A stretch of 64,000 nucleotides of DNA, from sequence record PX104378.1; one strand, given 5' to 3'. Shown piece by piece: positions 19,019 to 26,692 of the stretch. Below the pieces are notes generated by a model that saw only the letters and a list, made by a program, of their open reading frames with translations, did no database searches and was not told the origin of the DNA. The stretch is from a phage. How positions within the stretch are numbered: position 1 is the first letter of the stretch; every line of letters starts with the position of its first letter. The translations under genes were made by a program, and so were the position numbers.

Positions 19019-19297
19019 TTACATGTCTTGCAGTGCATAAAAGCATTTTTCTTCGTAGTCATAGAAAATGTCAAAGTATGCTTTTTCTACATACTCGCCA
19101 TTGATCCAAGCGGCAGTAACAATCAGAGTGGTCCAGTTAGATCCGCTCTCAACCGTAAAGGTTTTAATACCCAGCTTCGCTGCTAAGTCGAACGCAAACC
19201 GGACGCAACCACGGCAGGAAGTGATATTGGAAGTTTTGATTTTGATGCCACCGCGAGTTTTAGAAATTTCTACTTTAGCGAAAGACAGGTTGCTCAT
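19019..19297 (-). CDS. hypothetical protein (92 aa)
   Basis: ATG after PeSL leader GGAGAATCAAA; promoter 19340-19368 upstream. Confidence 0.5.
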   Translation of the reverse strand: MSNLSFAKVEISKTRGGIKIKTSNITSCRGCVRFAFDLAAKLGIKTFTVESGSNWTTLIVTAAWINGEYVEKAYFDIFYDYEEKCFYALQDM

Positions 19298-19339
19298 TTT
19301 GATTCTCCTTAAGAAAGTGTGTTTCGTTTTGATGTGTGT

Positions 19340-19368
19340 AGTATAGGGGATACGTGATCCCCTGTCAA
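19340..19368 (-). promoter_or_regulatory. PeSL-type early promoter (TTGACA-N17-TATACT) with hairpin spacer
   Basis: Spacer GGGGATCACGTATCCCC palindromic; conserved leader ACATCAAAACGAAACACAC. Confidence 0.65.
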
Positions 19369-19376
19369 CAACTTTT

Positions 19377-19640
19377 TTATGATTTTAGTGAATTAACTAC
19401 TACATCAAAATGATGTACAGAGCACACCTTACGAAACACGTATTCATCATGTTTAGGAATCTCCCCTAACCTCTCTATTTCGCTCGCTAACACGATAAAC
19501 CGTTTATCCGGTACATTTACCTTATATGCTTCAACAACGCACGGAAAACGCGTTTTAGCGAGTTCGGGATAGTTTTCTGACTCCATCAGGACAATGAATA
19601 CTCTGTTACATTGATTGTAGAATCCTGTTTTTGATTTCAT
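19377..19640 (-). CDS. hypothetical protein (start uncertain)
   Basis: Track ORF overlaps upstream gene by 100 nt; internal ATG at 19640 chosen. Confidence 0.35.
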   Translation of the reverse strand: MKSKTGFYNQCNRVFIVLMESENYPELAKTRFPCVVEAYKVNVPDKRFIVLASEIERLGEIPKHDEYVFRKVCSVHHFDVVVNSLKS

Positions 19641-19944
19641 TAAGTTTTCTTCTCTGTGCAATTCGTGCAATCTTCCTTTCATGATTTCGTTGGTTCTTGT
19701 CTTCACAGTTTACCCATTCAACAAGATCTTTACCTAACTCGAAAGCCCATTCTCGGTCTTGCTTTACGTTTTGTAGGTATGGACTTTCCGACACTCTACG
19801 AAGTGATGTTGTCGTAACAAGAATGATCCCAGGAATGGTCGGATGTTCCTTTCCATATACAATAGGACGCGAGTCACTATCAATACCCTGTAAGAAAGTG
19901 TATCCTGAATCACTTAGAATCATATACATTTTCATTTCACACAT
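19606..19944 (-). CDS. hypothetical protein (112 aa)
   Basis: ATG at 19944 after GAGGAAGCTGTG RBS. Confidence 0.45.
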   Translation of the reverse strand: MCEMKMYMILSDSGYTFLQGIDSDSRPIVYGKEHPTIPGIILVTTTSLRRVSESPYLQNVKQDREWAFELGKDLVEWVNCEDKNQRNHERKIARIAQRRKLNEIKNRILQSM

Positions 19945-20201
19945 CACAGCTTCCTCAACCAGTTATTAAAGCGAGCAAACCATGATGCTTTTCGTGCTTC
20001 TTTTACTTTATGTGCACGAAAACCACTGAAACACCATTCATAATCATCACCGAAACATGATTCAACAGGAACACCCGCATTTCGTAGTTCTCTGGTCTTT
20101 ATCATGAATCCTTGACATAAGGGGCGACCTTCAACAATGATAGGAAGTTTAACTTTTTCCATGAAAGTATACCCAGCACGGTCAATAATTTCAATCTTCA
20201 T
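19944..20201 (-). CDS. hypothetical protein, paralog family B (MKIEIID..VKLPIIVEG)
   Basis: Shares N-terminal ~55 aa with ORFs 20220-20417 and 22543-22764; RBS GAGGATTATATT. Confidence 0.55.
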   Translation of the reverse strand: MKIEIIDRAGYTFMEKVKLPIIVEGRPLCQGFMIKTRELRNAGVPVESCFGDDYEWCFSGFRAHKVKEARKASWFARFNNWLRKL

Positions 20202-20219
20202 AATATAATCCTCAATTAG

Positions 20220-20417
20220 TTATACTGCCCATGCTTCATTTGCACGAAAACACCATTCATACTCAGGAAAATAACCTTTAATTGGTACGCCAGCTTTTTG
20301 TAGTTCCTGCGTTTCTACAAGATAATCAAGCCCATATCGACGACCTTCCACAATAATAGGAAGTTTAACGCCATTCATGAAAGAAAATCCACCATCATCA
20401 ATAATTTCAATTTTCAT
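20220..20417 (-). CDS. hypothetical protein, paralog family B
   Basis: MKIEIIDDGGFSFMNGVKLPIIVEGR..AGVP, tandem with 19944-20201. Confidence 0.5.
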   Translation of the reverse strand: MKIEIIDDGGFSFMNGVKLPIIVEGRRYGLDYLVETQELQKAGVPIKGYFPEYEWCFRANEAWAV

Positions 20418-20661
20418 TTACATTATCTCCATAGATCTTTCCATCAATATCAATTTCACCAGCGCGAACATCTAGGATAAGATGTGGTAGGTGAATGCAG
20501 TTTTCCCAACCTACTCGCTTCATTTCTGCTACAGTAACGTAAGCCCATCCGTTCGCTGTAATAAAGTCTACTTCAACCTTGAGAGGAAAGCAAGACTTTT
20601 CTATGTCTTCGAATCCGACAATGTGTTTTGTTGTTGAATATGGAATATATCCGGTGATCAT
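20407..20661 (-). CDS. hypothetical protein (84 aa)
   Basis: ATG after AAGGAGATCACAAA RBS. Confidence 0.5.
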   Translation of the reverse strand: MITGYIPYSTTKHIVGFEDIEKSCFPLKVEVDFITANGWAYVTVAEMKRVGWENCIHLPHLILDVRAGEIDIDGKIYGDNVNEN

Positions 20662-21092
20662 TTTGTGATCTCCTTATACTCAACACGCCATAAACGGGTC
20701 GCCCATGATAAACGCTCATAACGCTGGCAGAAATCAGACCATAGATATTGTGTACCGTCTTGCATAGTTGAAATATGCGTTTTCTCTCCTACTTTCACGA
20801 ATGAAGTATTCGATTTTGTGATCTCGACCGGAGTATATCCGAAAGCTGGTTCCAAGTCAACATCTGAACTAAATGCCAATTTAACAGAATTTGTTTTTTT
20901 GACCGCTGTCCGGTTTCCTTCTGGGTATAGCACAGCAGGTTTAGCGCCTAAGCGGATAAACTCAGTGTTTTTAATGAACAGAATATCATGATAACCGTCA
21001 TATTCCGACACTTCCATAGTAACAGGAAAATCGACATGTTCTAAACCTGGTAGATCTCGCATATCATGAAATGTAGCCATCAACTTTTTCAT
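20658..21092 (-). CDS. hypothetical protein (144 aa)
   Basis: Start at ATG 21092 after GAGGAATACAAG RBS. Confidence 0.45.
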   Translation of the reverse strand: MKKLMATFHDMRDLPGLEHVDFPVTMEVSEYDGYHDILFIKNTEFIRLGAKPAVLYPEGNRTAVKKTNSVKLAFSSDVDLEPAFGYTPVEITKSNTSFVKVGEKTHISTMQDGTQYLWSDFCQRYERLSWATRLWRVEYKEITK

Positions 21093-21102
21093 CTTGTATT
21101 CC

Positions 21103-21300
21103 TCACTCTTCTGTTTCATTTCTTTTATATGGTACTATAACAGGATTAATACAGCAAGCACCAATTACGTTATGAGCACCACAATTTAAGCATTTATAGT
21201 CATGGAACTTATTAAGGAATCGACCAAACTCATAACCGACTAGCGCCGCATGTACTTGAGTCTCGATCTCATCCATATCAGCCAATGTTTTAACCTTCAT
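21103..21300 (-). CDS. small Cys-rich protein (65 aa)
   Basis: CLNCGAHNVIGACC zinc-binding-like cluster; start at ATG 21300 after GAGGATTATACT RBS. Confidence 0.4.
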   Translation of the reverse strand: MKVKTLADMDEIETQVHAALVGYEFGRFLNKFHDYKCLNCGAHNVIGACCINPVIVPYKRNETEE

Positions 21301-21310
21301 AGTATAATCC

Positions 21311-21601
21311 TCAAATGGTAGTTTTGCGAAGATGGTCATTACATGCTTTTAATGCATCAGTCGCGGTGTCATAGCGAGTATTATCATAGCACCAGTAACC
21401 ATCTGTCAACTGATAAATCAATCCATCCCTTTTAGCTTCGATGAAAGATAACTCTTTGAAAGTTTCTACTTTCTTTGCTGATACTCCACGGTCACGGCGC
21501 TTATAGAGTTTAGCTAAAATGCGTTCAGCTTGTTCCTCTTTATCACCAGACAGATCCCAAATAATGTTGCGGATATGTTTGATTAATTGTTCAGTGGTCA
21601 T
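21311..21601 (-). CDS. hypothetical protein (96 aa)
   Basis: ATG after PeSL leader GGAGAATCAAAG; promoter 21631-21658. Confidence 0.5.
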   Translation of the reverse strand: MTTEQLIKHIRNIIWDLSGDKEEQAERILAKLYKRRDRGVSAKKVETFKELSFIEAKRDGLIYQLTDGYWCYDNTRYDTATDALKACNDHLRKTTI

Positions 21602-21630
21602 CTTTGATTCTCCTTAGTTGGTATGTGTGC

Positions 21631-21658
21631 ATTATAGCACTATGATTTTCATTGTCAA
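21631..21658 (-). promoter_or_regulatory. PeSL-type early promoter (TTGACA-N16-TATAAT)
   Basis: Consensus hexamers; leader and GGAGAATCAAAG RBS before ATG 21601. Confidence 0.7.
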
Positions 21659-21675
21659 CAACTAAAAACAAAAAA

Positions 21676-21695
21676 GGCTATCCAGAAGGATAGCC
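21676..21695 (-). terminator. intrinsic terminator after the gp38-like gene
   Basis: Perfect 8-bp stem GGCTATCC/GGATAGCC with 4-nt loop followed by T-rich run on minus strand. Confidence 0.7.
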
Positions 21696-21702
21696 CATAA
21701 AA

Positions 21703-22488
21703 TTACACGCGAGCACCGTAGATCGTGCCTACTTTATCCCAGCGTGGAGCATTACCAGTAACAGCCTTACCAGCCGCACCACCAGAGTGAACAGTTCCTC
21801 CAGTACCACCTTGAATATATGAAGATTTGCCAGCAGATCCCAAATCTCCACCATTTCCTCCATAGTGAACCCCAGAAACAGTGCCTTTACCTGGGGCAGA
21901 AATTGTACCAGCAGATGCTGCCGCTGCGCCGCCTCCTGCCTTACCAGCCGCACCAAATGGACGGCCTCCGCCGCCGCCAAATATCATATCCATTTGAGGG
22001 AAAGGATGGTATCTAGCACCAGCACCGCCACCACCACCACCACCAATAATACCATTATTGTTTATTCTTAAACGAGTTCCAATTCCGTTATTTATTGCAT
22101 TTCCTCCTGCTCCGCCAGCAGAGTTACTTCCGCCATTTCCTCCCCGACCTAATACATGAACACCAGAGTTAATAATGAGTGTTACATATTCGTTTGTTAG
22201 TGAGCTAGGGAAATCAAGACAAGGAACGCCAGTAGAATGGGAAACAATATTACCGGTGATAGTAATTACTACCGGAGTAGATCCTTGTGCTTTCATCCAG
22301 TTAATAAGAGTGTCTTTATTGTAAGAGTTACTAGCGCCAATGCTATAATGAATCTCTTTAGAACGTCCGACCATCGCTGACATATACGCCGGACGACCTA
22401 AGCGTACAGCTTGCATTGCGGCGCTCATCCACCGTTGACCAGTCTCAGCAACAGCCGATGATCCGACCCAACCTGCTTTAATTGCCAT
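21703..22488 (-). CDS. gp38-like glycine-rich receptor-binding adhesin homolog (T2/S16 type)
   Basis: N-terminus MAIKAGWVGSSAVAETGQRWMSAAMQAVRLG resembles the gp38 attachment domain; C-terminal half has glycine-rich motifs GRGGNGGSNS, GGGGGGGAG, GGGGGRPFGAAG, GGNGG separated by short variable segments; ends ..WDKVGTIYGARV. Confidence 0.7.
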   Translation of the reverse strand: MAIKAGWVGSSAVAETGQRWMSAAMQAVRLGRPAYMSAMVGRSKEIHYSIGASNSYNKDTLINWMKAQGSTPVVITITGNIVSHSTGVPCLDFPSSLTNEYVTLIINSGVHVLGRGGNGGSNSAGGAGGNAINNGIGTRLRINNNGIIGGGGGGGAGARYHPFPQMDMIFGGGGGRPFGAAGKAGGGAAAASAGTISAPGKGTVSGVHYGGNGGDLGSAGKSSYIQGGTGGTVHSGGAAGKAVTGNAPRWDKVGTIYGARV

Positions 22489-22542
22489 AAAGTTTCCTCA
22501 CAAGAAAAGCCCCATTTAAGGGGCATTGATTAATAATATTAC

Positions 22543-22764
22543 TTAGATGACCTCTGCTTCACCATTCAGGAAGAAAGACCATGTTTTGTTAGGACAGCGA
22601 AGCGCCCATGATTCAGCAGTTTTAACACCAGCTTCGAACAATTGACGGCTGGTTACTTTAGCCATACCATCTTCGATGGCAACGTTTTCAATAATCATCG
22701 GGTACTTAGCGCCACGCATGAAACCGAAGCCAGCGGAAGATTTGATAATTTTAACAGTTGCCAT
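22543..22764 (-). CDS. hypothetical protein, paralog family B
   Basis: MATVKIIKSSAGFGFMRGAKYPMIIEN..EAGV parallels MKIEIID..VKLPIIVEG..AGVP; PeSL promoter 22806-22834 upstream. Confidence 0.5.
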   Translation of the reverse strand: MATVKIIKSSAGFGFMRGAKYPMIIENVAIEDGMAKVTSRQLFEAGVKTAESWALRCPNKTWSFFLNGEAEVI

Positions 22765-22805
22765 TTTTGATTCTCCTAGAAAGTGTATCTCGTTTCGATG
22801 TGTGT

Positions 22806-22834
22806 ATTATGCAATAACACCGGATCACTGTCAA
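22806..22834 (-). promoter_or_regulatory. PeSL-type early promoter (TTGACA-N17-CATAAT)
   Basis: Conserved leader ACACATCGAAACGAGATACAC and GGAGAATCAAAA RBS. Confidence 0.6.
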
Positions 22835-24125: not shown

Positions 24126-26273
24126 TTATTCACGTCCATTTGTATAGTAGTGTTTGAATCGCCCATAGCCAGTTTCAATAGACATATCCTTCTGGCGGAC
24201 AATCGCCCAATAACCATTACACGAATCTTGAAGATACAAATCCTTACCTTTTAGGAACTCATTAAAGATAGTGATTTGCCAGTCATAGTAGACAGAATCT
24301 TCAAGTTTATCCATCCAACCATGCGGATCTTCCATCAATTCGACAAGCTCATCAATTACCCAATACGGACACGGACTAAATCGGCCTTTGCTAAACTCGT
24401 TAAACATAGTAACAATTTTAACTTCCGGTCTAGGTTCATCCGGTCGCACAGGACGTTTATTAACTACAACCTGAACATATTTTGTATACCCGACAATCTC
24501 GCCAGGATCTAGTTCATCGTTGCTGTTTTTATCAGCAAATGCAACAAATCGATAAACACCAGCATCCTCTAGCGTAACGTTTGCTTTACGGTAAATCGGA
24601 CTTCTTGAGTCCTCCATGTCCATTTTAACACCGTTTTTACTAAACTCATAAGTCGGAACATATGAGGCTGGCGGTTTTAGCATGGTTGCTTCTAGCGTTA
24701 GGGTATCACCTTCCGTAACCTGTACCGGATGAGGACCGTCAAACTCCATATTCGGCACTACTTCAACATGATAGGTCGAACGACCAGCAATATCAAAATC
24801 AGTATGTGCACTAAATGGATCTTTACTAGGACTATCACGATATTCATGCGCCCAGATGCCGTTATGGTCTCGGTCCGCAGAGTCGGTGATCTTATATTCC
24901 TTAGTACCTAGCGGAAGTTCCGTTACTTTAACGTCGTTTTTGGTGATAACCAAAGTTCGCGTTTGTTCGGGATCATCGCTAGCTGGCGGTTCAGGATCTA
25001 TGATCTTGAGAACAATCGGTTCACCCACTTCAATATTACGATAATCATACTCTTTATCATAAATATCAAGCATACGACGATCATAAAATAATGGGCGACC
25101 GTTAGGAATCACCTGTTCACCCGCTGGATTGGCAGGAGCAACCAACAATTGAAGCGCAACGCTGTTATCATATTGCAATCCAGATAGCGTTATCCGGTCA
25201 TAACCCTCATCGCCATATTTTTTACTTTGTAGTTTCTTACCGCCAAGCATCCACGTAAAGTAAACATTGTTAGTAAGCATACCATAATGACGATTCCATG
25301 AGCTATCGGCTTGCATCACTGGCATATCAAGGTTTACTGTAGACCCAGAAGGATAACGAAAATCAATAGCACTAAAATCACGGCTAAAAAATTCGTTTTC
25401 TTTTACGTTAACCGTGAATTGATGACGTTGCCCGTCAATATATTCAGTTCCAGCACCAGGTCCATTAACAACCTTATACGCACGAACAAAAGCAACATAA
25501 ACTCCGGCATCTGACGGTTGAGCATGTTTAGTTACATACAAAGTCTTATCTTTAGACTCATAAACCAAACTACCATCATTGCGCTCTAGTCGATATCGGA
25601 CAATAGTATATTCCGCCTGATTTGGTGCATCATCCTCTACGGTAAAATAAGCAGGTGCATATTTTTGTACGTTGAATACTTCCTTATTTTCAGTGATGTT
25701 TGCATAGAAAGGATATACAAATTTAACCTCACCATGTTCATCACTCAATTCCATTTTATATGTACCGGAAAATTCAGGCCAAGCGAATTTTGCAATTTTA
25801 AATTCACGATGGTCTAACCCCAGATCACCATCAACGGAATCAACCAAACCATCATTATAATAAAGGTCAACCGAAATATTAGGCTGGATATGACTACGAA
25901 AAACAATCTTTGCCTTGATTTCATCACCAATATTAAAAGACGTCGGCGGGTATACATGTTCCACATATGGATTATCAAAAAGTTCAAAGGTGAAGTTTTC
26001 CGTGCCGATATCTACGGATTCGCCAGAAAGATTTTCATCATCTTGAGCAAAACCACGAACATTAACAGACCAACCTGTTTTATCTTCCTCTTTAACAGAT
26101 TTTAGCGGAAAGGATGGACCATCTGTCATTGTGATCAACTTATCATTCTTTTTCCACAAATAACCTTTTCGTCTTTTCTCTGGGTCTTCCGACTCAGCAA
26201 CAATAGAACATTCAAAAGTATGAGGAAGCCAAATTTGTGAGTTAATTGTAGTGTTTTTAATTTCTGCTGGCAT
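24126..26273 (-). CDS. large hypothetical protein (~715 aa) with Ig-like repeat signatures
   Basis: Recurrent D-x-G-x-Y motifs (SDAGVYVAFVRAYKV, EDAGVYRFVAFADK) typical of Ig-like beta-sandwich domains; start at ATG 26273 after AGGGGGA RBS; no signal peptide. Confidence 0.6.
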   Translation of the reverse strand: MPAEIKNTTINSQIWLPHTFECSIVAESEDPEKRRKGYLWKKNDKLITMTDGPSFPLKSVKEEDKTGWSVNVRGFAQDDENLSGESVDIGTENFTFELFDNPYVEHVYPPTSFNIGDEIKAKIVFRSHIQPNISVDLYYNDGLVDSVDGDLGLDHREFKIAKFAWPEFSGTYKMELSDEHGEVKFVYPFYANITENKEVFNVQKYAPAYFTVEDDAPNQAEYTIVRYRLERNDGSLVYESKDKTLYVTKHAQPSDAGVYVAFVRAYKVVNGPGAGTEYIDGQRHQFTVNVKENEFFSRDFSAIDFRYPSGSTVNLDMPVMQADSSWNRHYGMLTNNVYFTWMLGGKKLQSKKYGDEGYDRITLSGLQYDNSVALQLLVAPANPAGEQVIPNGRPLFYDRRMLDIYDKEYDYRNIEVGEPIVLKIIDPEPPASDDPEQTRTLVITKNDVKVTELPLGTKEYKITDSADRDHNGIWAHEYRDSPSKDPFSAHTDFDIAGRSTYHVEVVPNMEFDGPHPVQVTEGDTLTLEATMLKPPASYVPTYEFSKNGVKMDMEDSRSPIYRKANVTLEDAGVYRFVAFADKNSNDELDPGEIVGYTKYVQVVVNKRPVRPDEPRPEVKIVTMFNEFSKGRFSPCPYWVIDELVELMEDPHGWMDKLEDSVYYDWQITIFNEFLKGKDLYLQDSCNGYWAIVRQKDMSIETGYGRFKHYYTNGRE

Positions 26274-26293
26274 GTATCCCCCTGTGACTGACA

Positions 26294-26692
26294 TTAAGCC
26301 AGTCGAGTGAGTTTATAAATTGTTTTAAAGCATAGAACTTTTATATCGTCTAAAACGCTCTGTAACGAGCTATCAACATCATTATAAATCTCACTAGCCA
26401 TTTGCGTTAACTCTTGCAAATAGGCAATTTCGCTAATCTCCTTGCGGACGACCAACGTTGGCTGATAACGACCAGTGATCCCAATATTGGTTTCAGTGAA
26501 ATTATCAACCAATTCTTGCATTTCAAGATAGAACTCTTCGAGAGCCTTATGTTTTGCATAAGATCCCGGACCAGTTACCCCAAAATGCGCAGAATGCATA
26601 TAAGTAACACTCATCAGACATTCACCGATAAAGCGGTCAACTTTATTAGCTTTCCCCTCTTCGGACGTCTTTCGAAAATCACTGAATTTCAT
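26294..26692 (-). CDS. hypothetical protein (132 aa)
   Basis: Start at ATG 26692 after GGAGAATCGAGAAC RBS. Confidence 0.4.
   Translation of the reverse strand: MKFSDFRKTSEEGKANKVDRFIGECLMSVTYMHSAHFGVTGPGSYAKHKALEEFYLEMQELVDNFTETNIGITGRYQPTLVVRKEISEIAYLQELTQMASEIYNDVDSSLQSVLDDIKVLCFKTIYKLTRLA

Follow-up and report, generated by a model that had tools for sequence, protein, structure and literature searches.

RB49-like phages possess hyperplastic genome regions, which are rich in ORFans and carry promoter-early/stem-loop (PeSL) cassettes (PMC2839356; PMC4122927); ORFan turnover is a known trait of these regions (PMC2839356). In the PeSL system of RB49 and phi1 (Arbiol et al. 2010, PMC2839356; Comeau et al. 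2014, PMC4122927), strong promoters and terminators were demonstrated by experiment and a modular shuffling of cassettes was proposed (PMC2839356). Here, we analyzed a 64,000-nucleotide stretch of phage DNA (sequence record PX104378.1; in the following, the window), which shares genus, region type and cassettes with this system and contains an array of small paralogous genes. The window is 96.7% identical at the nucleotide level to phage Brandy(49) and ~96% to RB49 and, judged by this identity, comes from a Brandy49/RB49-like Krischvirus (coliphage). Neither the paralogous RB49 open reading frames (ORFs) nor the presence of gp38 at the locus is mentioned in the PeSL papers. In contrast to PeSL x PeSL exchange, the commonest change at this locus, the loss of one copy, results from homologous recombination inside the paralogs themselves, and two other deletions use microhomologies of 7–9 nt within coding sequence.

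The paralog locus is part of an early minus-strand block extending from dam to tk/rI. The annotations of RB49 and GEC-3S identify its copies A, B and C as orthologs of RB49ORF073c, 074c and 080c. From sequence comparison, 076c-075c-B-A-072c-071c appear to form a head-to-tail array of six diverged copies within one early operon, and copy C, located beyond the gp38 gene, brings the number to seven. The features are as follows:

22543..22764, minus strand: copy C, 73 amino acids, ortholog of RB49ORF080c; ORF with a match to phrog_7345 (E=3e-34)
21703..22488, minus strand: gp38 tail-fibre adhesin, not a member of the paralog family (Pfam GP38, E=3e-70)
20658..21092, minus strand: ortholog of RB49ORF076c, 144 amino acids, of which the N-terminal ~50 correspond to a diverged family domain (DFPVTMEV...FIKNTEFIRLGAKPA)
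20407..20661, minus strand: ortholog of RB49ORF075c, 84 amino acids, with the motif CFPLKVEV...VTVAEMKRVG
20220..20417, minus strand: copy B, 65 amino acids, RB49ORF074c; its start overlaps the end of 075c
19944..20201, minus strand: copy A, 85 amino acids, RB49ORF073c; core domain followed by a basic C-terminal helix (KEARKASWFARFNNWLRKL)
20125..20201, minus strand: 5' 77 nt of A, repeat D1, which has 81% identity with the 77 nt at the 5' end of B (20341-20417)
19606..19944, minus strand: ortholog of RB49ORF072c, 112 amino acids, with a C-terminal extension (YMILSDSGYTFLQG...PIV...VTTTSLRR...EWAF)
19377..19640, minus strand: ortholog of RB49ORF071c, 87 amino acids (RFPCVVEA...IVLASEIERLG...DEYVF); last gene of the operon

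An earlier note on the window had described A, B and C as three small paralogs, with A and B in tandem and a more divergent copy C on the other side of a gp38-like gene. All three ORFs are present at these positions, on the minus strand, and their homology is supported throughout. A and B, separated by 18 nt, are identical at 35/66 positions (53%; BLASTP, E=3e-23), whereas C shares 37% identity with A across 41 amino acids (E=1e-6) and 32% with B across 63 amino acids (E=4e-6). The pairwise alignment proposed in that note gave identities above the background expected from composition: local alignment against 2000 composition-preserving shuffles resulted in z-scores of 34 (A-B), 7.9 (A-C) and 8.6 (B-C), and none of the shuffles (0/2000) reached the observed score. 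In addition, all three match the whole 66-position profile of phrog_7345 end to end (A, 1.1e-38, positions 1-66 of 66; B, 1.3e-35; C, 3.1e-34) and are thereby members of this PHROG, which has no function attached; phrog_13367 and phrog_15322 are weaker matches of the family. A HMMER profile of 34 diverse family members (A4) detects A, B and C at E-values of 1e-19 to 4e-27.

The count of three was nevertheless too low, as four adjacent genes also belong to the family. Testing of the neighbours was prompted by the pattern FP-x-x-VE ... E-h-x-R-x-G; the A4 profile shows the motif h-FP-h-x-VE ... V-x-x-x-E-L-x-R-x-G (... W-x-F ... EVI). In an hhalign scan of all window ORFs with 55 or more amino acids (355) against this profile, A, B and C ranked at the top (scores 181, 123 and 91), followed by 072c (42.1; probability 94%, P=1e-7), 071c (35.0; 88-90%), the N-terminus of 076c (34.4; 83%, P=8e-6) and 075c (28.7; 71%, P=4e-5), with the best unrelated ORF at 21.0. 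The same four emerged from a HMMER search of 1301 six-frame ORFs (072c, 4.6e-5; 071c, 6.3e-5; 076c, 2.3e-4; 075c, 2.3e-3; next ORF, 0.65). Conversely, a reciprocal hidden Markov model (HMM), built from an unguided alignment of 076c, 075c, 072c and 071c alone, finds distant family proteins of other phages down to E=5e-8; its top 40 matches comprise family members only (40/40) and none of ~1300 decoy ORFs.

Comparison of structure models points in the same direction. A model of C (see below) matches the BFVD model A0A6B9SQ26, the 071c ortholog of phage Ec_Makalu_003, with a Foldseek probability of 0.98 and template-modelling (TM) scores of 0.62/0.55, next to scores of 0.74-0.87 for the BFVD models of B and A orthologs. 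The UniProt entries for 072c, 075c and the N-terminus of 076c are absent from the top 50 BFVD matches of the C model. PHROGs lists 071c, 072c, 075c and 076c in the separate families 17411, 16316, 15979 and 16117; profile, reciprocal-HMM and fold evidence joins them to one superfamily with A, B and C.

Two side observations concern 076c. The annotated RB49 version (119 amino acids; locus L002 4360-4719) starts at MEVSEYDG and lacks the first ~25 residues of the window and GEC-3S proteins, so that part of the family-like N-terminal motif is missing from it. Furthermore, some Krischviruses carry an extra 72-amino-acid ORF between 077c and 076c (L016 2596-2814; Makalu_003, L023 174-392; phiS, L022 19-237). 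Its C-terminus (SYELLSWAIDVWKIEYEVITE) resembles that of 076c (QRYERLSWATRLWRVEYKEITK; phrog_10407); apparently, part of the 076c C-terminal domain was duplicated here. As family members, this ORF (from G2494) and ORF081c were both rejected, with scores of 0.2-2% as negative controls.

The suggestion of the earlier note that the locus is prone to recombination is well founded, as seen from the loss of B, the reassortment of alleles, deletion chimeras and the presence or absence of gp38. A tblastn search with A matched 59 Krischvirus records, 30 of them at two places (A and B) and 29 at one. In every two-copy genome, A begins with ATGAAG after '...gaggattatatt', and B with ATGAAA overlapping the end of 075c. 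The gene of the single-copy genomes has the upstream context and the ATGAAA of B, followed by an A-type body, in every such genome examined (kvi, JSE, ECD7, SSG23, G2494, UPWr_E1, Makalu_001 and one metagenomic genome). The crossover is therefore placed within the shared ATTGAAATTATT; in one single-copy case it lies ~45 nt further in. From these junctions, B was evidently lost by unequal B x A crossover, with the 77-nt, 81%-identical 5' repeat as the substrate. The combinations B1/A1, B1/A2, B2/A1, B2/A2 and ?/A3 imply at least four independent events of this kind. Alleles of A and B are also reassorted, with A1+B1, A2+B1, A1+B2 and A2'+B2 all being found.

Besides that, two deletions have produced chimeric genes, each present in two assemblies. 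One chimera joins C to 075c (L003 6001-6183; junction GCTGGTG) and lacks gp38 to 076c, and the other joins 084c to B (L005 6001-6261 / L006 3435-3695; junction GAT(C/T)ATCTT) and lacks 083c to 075c, including C and gp38. Both deletions end inside family members, at microhomologies of 7–9 nt, and both chimeras are in frame and keep the translational coupling to the next gene. Recombinants between C and A or B were not seen. Excision of gp38 by recombination of C with A or B was considered and rejected; the metagenomic deletion that begins in C has its other end in 075c, at a microhomology of 7 nt, rather than in A or B. Altogether, the seven-copy array goes back to tandem duplication and divergence, and its remodelling continues: homologous recombination where the 5' ends of B and A resemble each other removes B and leaves a hybrid with a B start and an A body, A and B alleles reassort, and deletions at short homologies yield in-frame chimeras.

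The regulatory elements of the locus, as predicted from sequence, are listed below:

22806..22834, minus strand: promoter of C, sigma-70-type (TTGACA-17-CATAAT), with a conserved PeSL-type leader and an AGGAG Shine-Dalgarno sequence
22509..22524, minus strand: stem-loop resembling an intrinsic terminator (GCCCC-TTAAAT-GGGGC with a T-run), directly after C
21675..21696, minus strand: terminator-like stem-loop after gp38
21631..21658, minus strand: sigma-70 promoter of perfect consensus (TTGACA-16-TATAAT, TG extended), heading an eight-gene operon
19340..19368, minus strand: PeSL-type promoter in front of 070c, whose -35 and -10 boxes enclose a GGGGAT..ATCCCC stem-loop

The operon starting from the promoter at 21658-21631 comprises 078c-077c-076c-075c-B-A-072c-071c, and the PeSL-type promoter of 070c marks the downstream limit of this transcription unit. 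C, with its own promoter and the terminator just 3' of it, forms a one-gene unit. Shine-Dalgarno sequences precede the genes. The earlier note had called the proteins early, and consensus sigma-70 promoters of the early type are indeed found upstream of the copies, which suggests that these are expressed early. Five PeSL cassettes are distributed across 18.6-24.1 kb (upstream of 068c, 070c, 078c, C and 084c), with the common sequence GTTGACA-N17-TATAAT-(G)CACACATC...AGGAGAATCAAAATG. Clear stem-loops are located at 24116-24091, 21696-21675 and 22524-22509 and in the 070c promoter spacer; at the C promoter of the window, no strong stem-loop was found between or beside the hexamers. Differential presence with junctions in PeSL elements applies to gp38 and not to C, which is present in 58/58 records; B is differentially present, but with its junction inside coding sequence.

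The leaders between promoter and start of 070c and C (19289-19344 and 22757-22810) are direct repeats (D2 and D8) with 86-88% identity, ~3.47 kb apart, which flank a stretch with C, gp38 and all of the paralog operon. If PeSL x PeSL exchange took place at these repeats, the entire block would be excised; a deletion of the whole D2-D8 block was not seen among the genomes examined. Between the 084c PeSL and rI.-1, the window contains a Hoc-like ORF of 722 amino acids with Ig domains (24126-26294, minus strand; phrog_1149, E=1.5e-9). In RB49 and GEC-3S, nothing but an intergenic gap is found at this position, and a 714-amino-acid version occurs on two metagenomic contigs; on this comparison, the ORF represents another apparent cassette-type polymorphism.

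The gene between C and the operon, gp38-like in the earlier note, is indeed a gp38 adhesin, and both Pfam domains are recognized (PF05268/PF21721; GP38, E=3e-70, 237 bits; Gp38_N, E=4e-18, 65.5 bits; cut-off 25 each). In kvi, MIZ5, G2494 and UPWr_E1 (L013, L014, L016, L017), the gp38 cassette (window 21625-22542) is missing at this place, and the stop codon of C is directly followed by the PeSL element TTGACA-cggggagaaatccccg-TATAAT and 078c. In the window, a block of terminator, gp38 and terminator is located between the C stop and the -35 box of the next promoter. Since the indel extends from the C stop to the -35 box, the boundaries of gp38 lie in regulatory, PeSL-type sequence, outside the paralogs. 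The idea that gp38 is mobile because it is flanked by family copies thus found no support; gp38 is rather an unrelated cassette that inserts or deletes at the PeSL element just downstream of C. The 5' end of the RB49-type gp38 is found by blastn in 44 of ~59 Krischvirus records, and ~15/59 have no blastn match to it anywhere in the genome. As C is equally conserved with and without gp38, the adjacency of the two genes is best read as incidental.

Gp38 is a late structural gene. In the window it stands between two intrinsic terminators in the early region, and no T4-type late promoter (TATAAATA) for it was found within ~4 kb. The window gp38 is 99% identical to that of Brandy49, 89-91% (amino acids) to gp38 of T2/T6-like Tequatrovirus phages, with 84-89% nucleotide identity over the 3' 675 nt, and 78-83% (amino acids) to gp38 of RB49 or GEC-3S. 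This pattern indicates a probable exchange of the receptor-binding part between genera. For Brandy49, a gp38 more divergent and a host range broader than in any other phage of the RB49-like set are reported (PMC9569957).

As a next step, selection on the three copies was compared across nine related loci, where dN and dS denote nonsynonymous and synonymous divergence:

C: amino acid identity to relatives 97-100%; dN ~0.01; dS 0.02-0.19
B, true orthologs: amino acid identity 98-100%; dN 0-0.01; dS ~0.2
B2 allele (MIZ5): amino acid identity 80%; dN 0.10; dS 0.44
A, A1 against A2/A3: amino acid identity 55-68%; dN 0.19-0.31; dS 0.33-0.61

B and C are thus under strong purifying selection (dN/dS ~0-0.1), and the Shine-Dalgarno sequences together with the low dN relative to dS in B and C argue that these are real genes. 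C is the most conserved family member, with 94-99% identity across 58 Krischvirus records; the B2 allele also occurs in phiS and Makalu003. Copy A, in contrast, falls into at least three allelic classes (A1, A2, A3), and its neighbours 072c and 075c are 88-99% identical in the very genomes in which A is hypervariable. The differences between A1 and A2 concentrate in the predicted loops 7-16, 26-31 and 45-51 and in the last strands, and KLPIIV, ELRKAGV, DDYEWCF and ARFNNWLR are fixed across the A alleles. It is because of this combination, 55-68% identity among A alleles against conserved neighbours and fixed core motifs, that we propose a conserved scaffold with variable loops.

To define the wider family, 1.8 billion representative proteins were searched exhaustively with HMMER, which yielded 38 clusters (50% identity) at E<=1e-3. 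Their members typically have 65-78 amino acids, with a domain of ~65-75 and the consensus MKVKLLNDGGY..M..VkFPvvVEg....V.gSELiRaGa....YeW.F...eCEVIee. In Morganella and Providencia lambdoid prophages, relatives are encoded between recT/yqaJ/ssb and int, beside NinX-like genes. One relative resides in an island of small (moron) genes between the terminase and portal genes, another adjoins a primase-polymerase gene, and the T4-like phage Moon encodes others in its gene 32-frd region; further relatives come from Proteus, Klebsiella, Iodobacter, Pantoea, Pseudomonas, Aeromonas, Vibrio and T1-like phages. The distant members in lambdoid prophages and in the small-gene island compare with lambdoid accessory genes of the 'ea/nin-region' and moron type: like the Krischvirus copies, they are small and variable, early and, judged by position, non-essential, and they are likewise without known function; these genomes carry one or two copies compared with seven in the window. 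Two-copy genomes exist outside Krischvirus as well, and natural tandem fusions of two domains occur among the relatives (P0030, P0031, P0033, P0036, P0039). The distant members P0038 and P0040 share the A-type C-terminal 'F.RFNhFLkgL' helix, and no known domain was found in the fused extensions of P0072, P0060 and P0048.

The AlphaFold2 model of C, calculated from a diverse alignment, has a mean predicted local distance difference test (pLDDT) score of 89.2 and a predicted TM score of 0.77. It predicts a small, soluble beta-barrel of five to six strands (2-6, 23-31, 34-38, 61-66, 70-72) with short helices at 39-44 and 52-56. For A, a shallow alignment produced a poor model (pLDDT 68; helix 68-84) with meaningless Foldseek matches. 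The best PDB matches of the C model are SH3 domains (TM 0.45-0.55, root-mean-square deviation 4-5 Å), from which it deviates in its long N-terminal loop and in a short additional helix that follows strand 3, without any sequence relationship. An assignment as SH3 domain was rejected, as there was neither a significant superposition on a solved SH3 structure nor a sequence match to a PDB chain. A structure search of BFVD with the C model matched only uncharacterised phage proteins.

What might these proteins do? The most likely explanation is that the copies are made early in infection as accessory proteins, each of them individually dispensable. The conserved barrel scaffold with its variable loops would bind host or host-defence proteins, the loops setting specificity; different paralogs and alleles may cover different targets or host variants, and duplication and allele shuffling could broaden or retune this repertoire. 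That copies are individually dispensable is seen from the absence of B from 29/59 records and the disruption of A in kvi (nonsense codon at position 48; L013 2259-2402 region) and phiS (ATG>ATA; L022 ~683-958). The accessory role is suggested by the location of relatives in lambdoid early-left regions next to NinX, in the moron island and in the gene 32-frd region of Moon, and the multi-copy genomes and tandem fusions elsewhere are consistent with it. We are highly confident in the structural and evolutionary description of the array. That its products are early cytoplasmic accessory proteins binding host or host-defence proteins is a tentative proposal, and the explanation as a whole, with both parts blended, we regard as somewhat probable.

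Several points weigh against this explanation. The functional role is proposed from context, and the relatives from BFVD and GenBank are all annotated as 'hypothetical'. Sequence searches of Pfam, NCBIfam and PDB with the single proteins and the family profile found no relative; no characterised anti-defence or host-takeover relative was obtained from Pfam, NCBIfam, PDB or the literature, and a literature search with the RB49 ORF names found no papers mentioning these ORFs. The genomic contexts of distant relatives offered no functional clue beyond 'early accessory region'. Foldseek comparison of the C model with PDB gave only SH3-like, non-significant matches (E 0.8-4; best match E=0.81, probability 0.41, TM 0.45/0.53). 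The early timing is read from promoter sequence, and 075c, the weakest of the four added members, is weakly supported as belonging to the family. The net charge ranges from acidic to basic across the family, which leaves no common DNA-mimic signature, and a DNA-mimic function was rejected on this ground. Furthermore, relaxed constraint or gene conversion between A and B would explain the high dN/dS of A just as well as diversifying selection would, and the visible decay of A in two phages amounts to ongoing pseudogenisation.

Alternative explanations were weighed against the same data. That the similarity of A and B to C and to the neighbouring genes merely reflects chance among short proteins of like composition might be argued from the low identities (32-37% for C, 13-26% between the neighbours and the profile consensus), but we consider this practically negligible, and refuted for A, B, C, 071c and 072c: no shuffle reached the observed scores, the PHROG profile independently matches all three copies, only adjacent genes top the scan of 355 ORFs, the HMMER E-values are corrected for 1301 ORFs, the reciprocal HMM has no decoy in its top 40, and 071c has support from the fold. 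It is very improbable, too, that the copies, and C above all, act together with gp38 as an accessory of assembly or host range. In 44 Krischvirus records, as in the window, C directly precedes gp38; however, it is 97% identical where the locus lacks gp38 and the genome lacks the RB49-type gp38 5' end, it has its own early-type promoter and is separated from gp38 by a terminator, and distant relatives are found in early or accessory regions of siphophages, podophages and lambdoid prophages, away from tail genes. This role is thereby already largely refuted.

The copies could also be functionless passenger ORFs in a region that tolerates duplications, with paralogy being a by-product of recombination instead of selection. 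The loss of B in half of the genomes, the pseudogenised A of kvi and phiS and the ORFan turnover known for the region (PMC2839356) would fit; but the purifying selection on B and C, the presence of C in 58/58 records, the conservation of the domain, its predicted fold intact, in very distant phages that share 20-30% identity and the in-frame nature of both deletion chimeras make this improbable. Small nucleic-acid-binding regulators with a Sm/SH3-like barrel, acting on phage or host RNA or DNA in the early-to-middle switch, with A contributing a basic helix, are an unlikely alternative that accords with two features: the only PDB resemblance is to small barrels of the SH3 type, and the C-terminal helix of A is strongly basic (+4.8), with C, 071c and 072c mildly basic. 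Yet the structural matches are non-significant (E ~1), most members are acidic (family median isoelectric point 4.8), no basic surface positions are conserved, the conserved residues being hydrophobic or located in turns, and individual copies are dispensable. More specifically than the proposed binding of host or host-defence proteins, the array could represent a diversifying family of binder scaffolds, whose hypervariable loops (A1/A2/A3, B1/B2, reassorted) neutralise variable host defence or surface-stress proteins. We regard this as doubtful; if true, it would reveal a previously unrecognised, widespread phage family of counter-defence or host-takeover proteins, with the paralog arrays and tandem fusions acting as hetero-oligomers.

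The paralogy of ORFans and the plasticity of RB49-type hyperplastic regions were already known, as was the grouping of A, B and C in one PHROG. New are the number of seven copies, a confident fold prediction without a solved relative, the contrast between the conserved B and C and the hypervariable A, and the mapping of a recurrent B x A crossover. These findings overturn nothing: the plasticity is of a kind ordinary for phages, and the uncharacterised family is of moderate interest. As a natural example, the locus nonetheless illustrates cleanly how accessory genes are reshaped in T4-type phages, since unequal crossover of tandem paralogs, in-frame microhomology deletions and PeSL-bounded gain and loss of gp38, a host-range gene, are found together within 5 kb. 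In addition, it defines a widespread, uncharacterised small-barrel domain with a confident model and with one hypervariable and two strongly conserved members. The family may therefore serve as a short list of candidates for host-takeover and anti-defence screens in RB49-like therapy phages.

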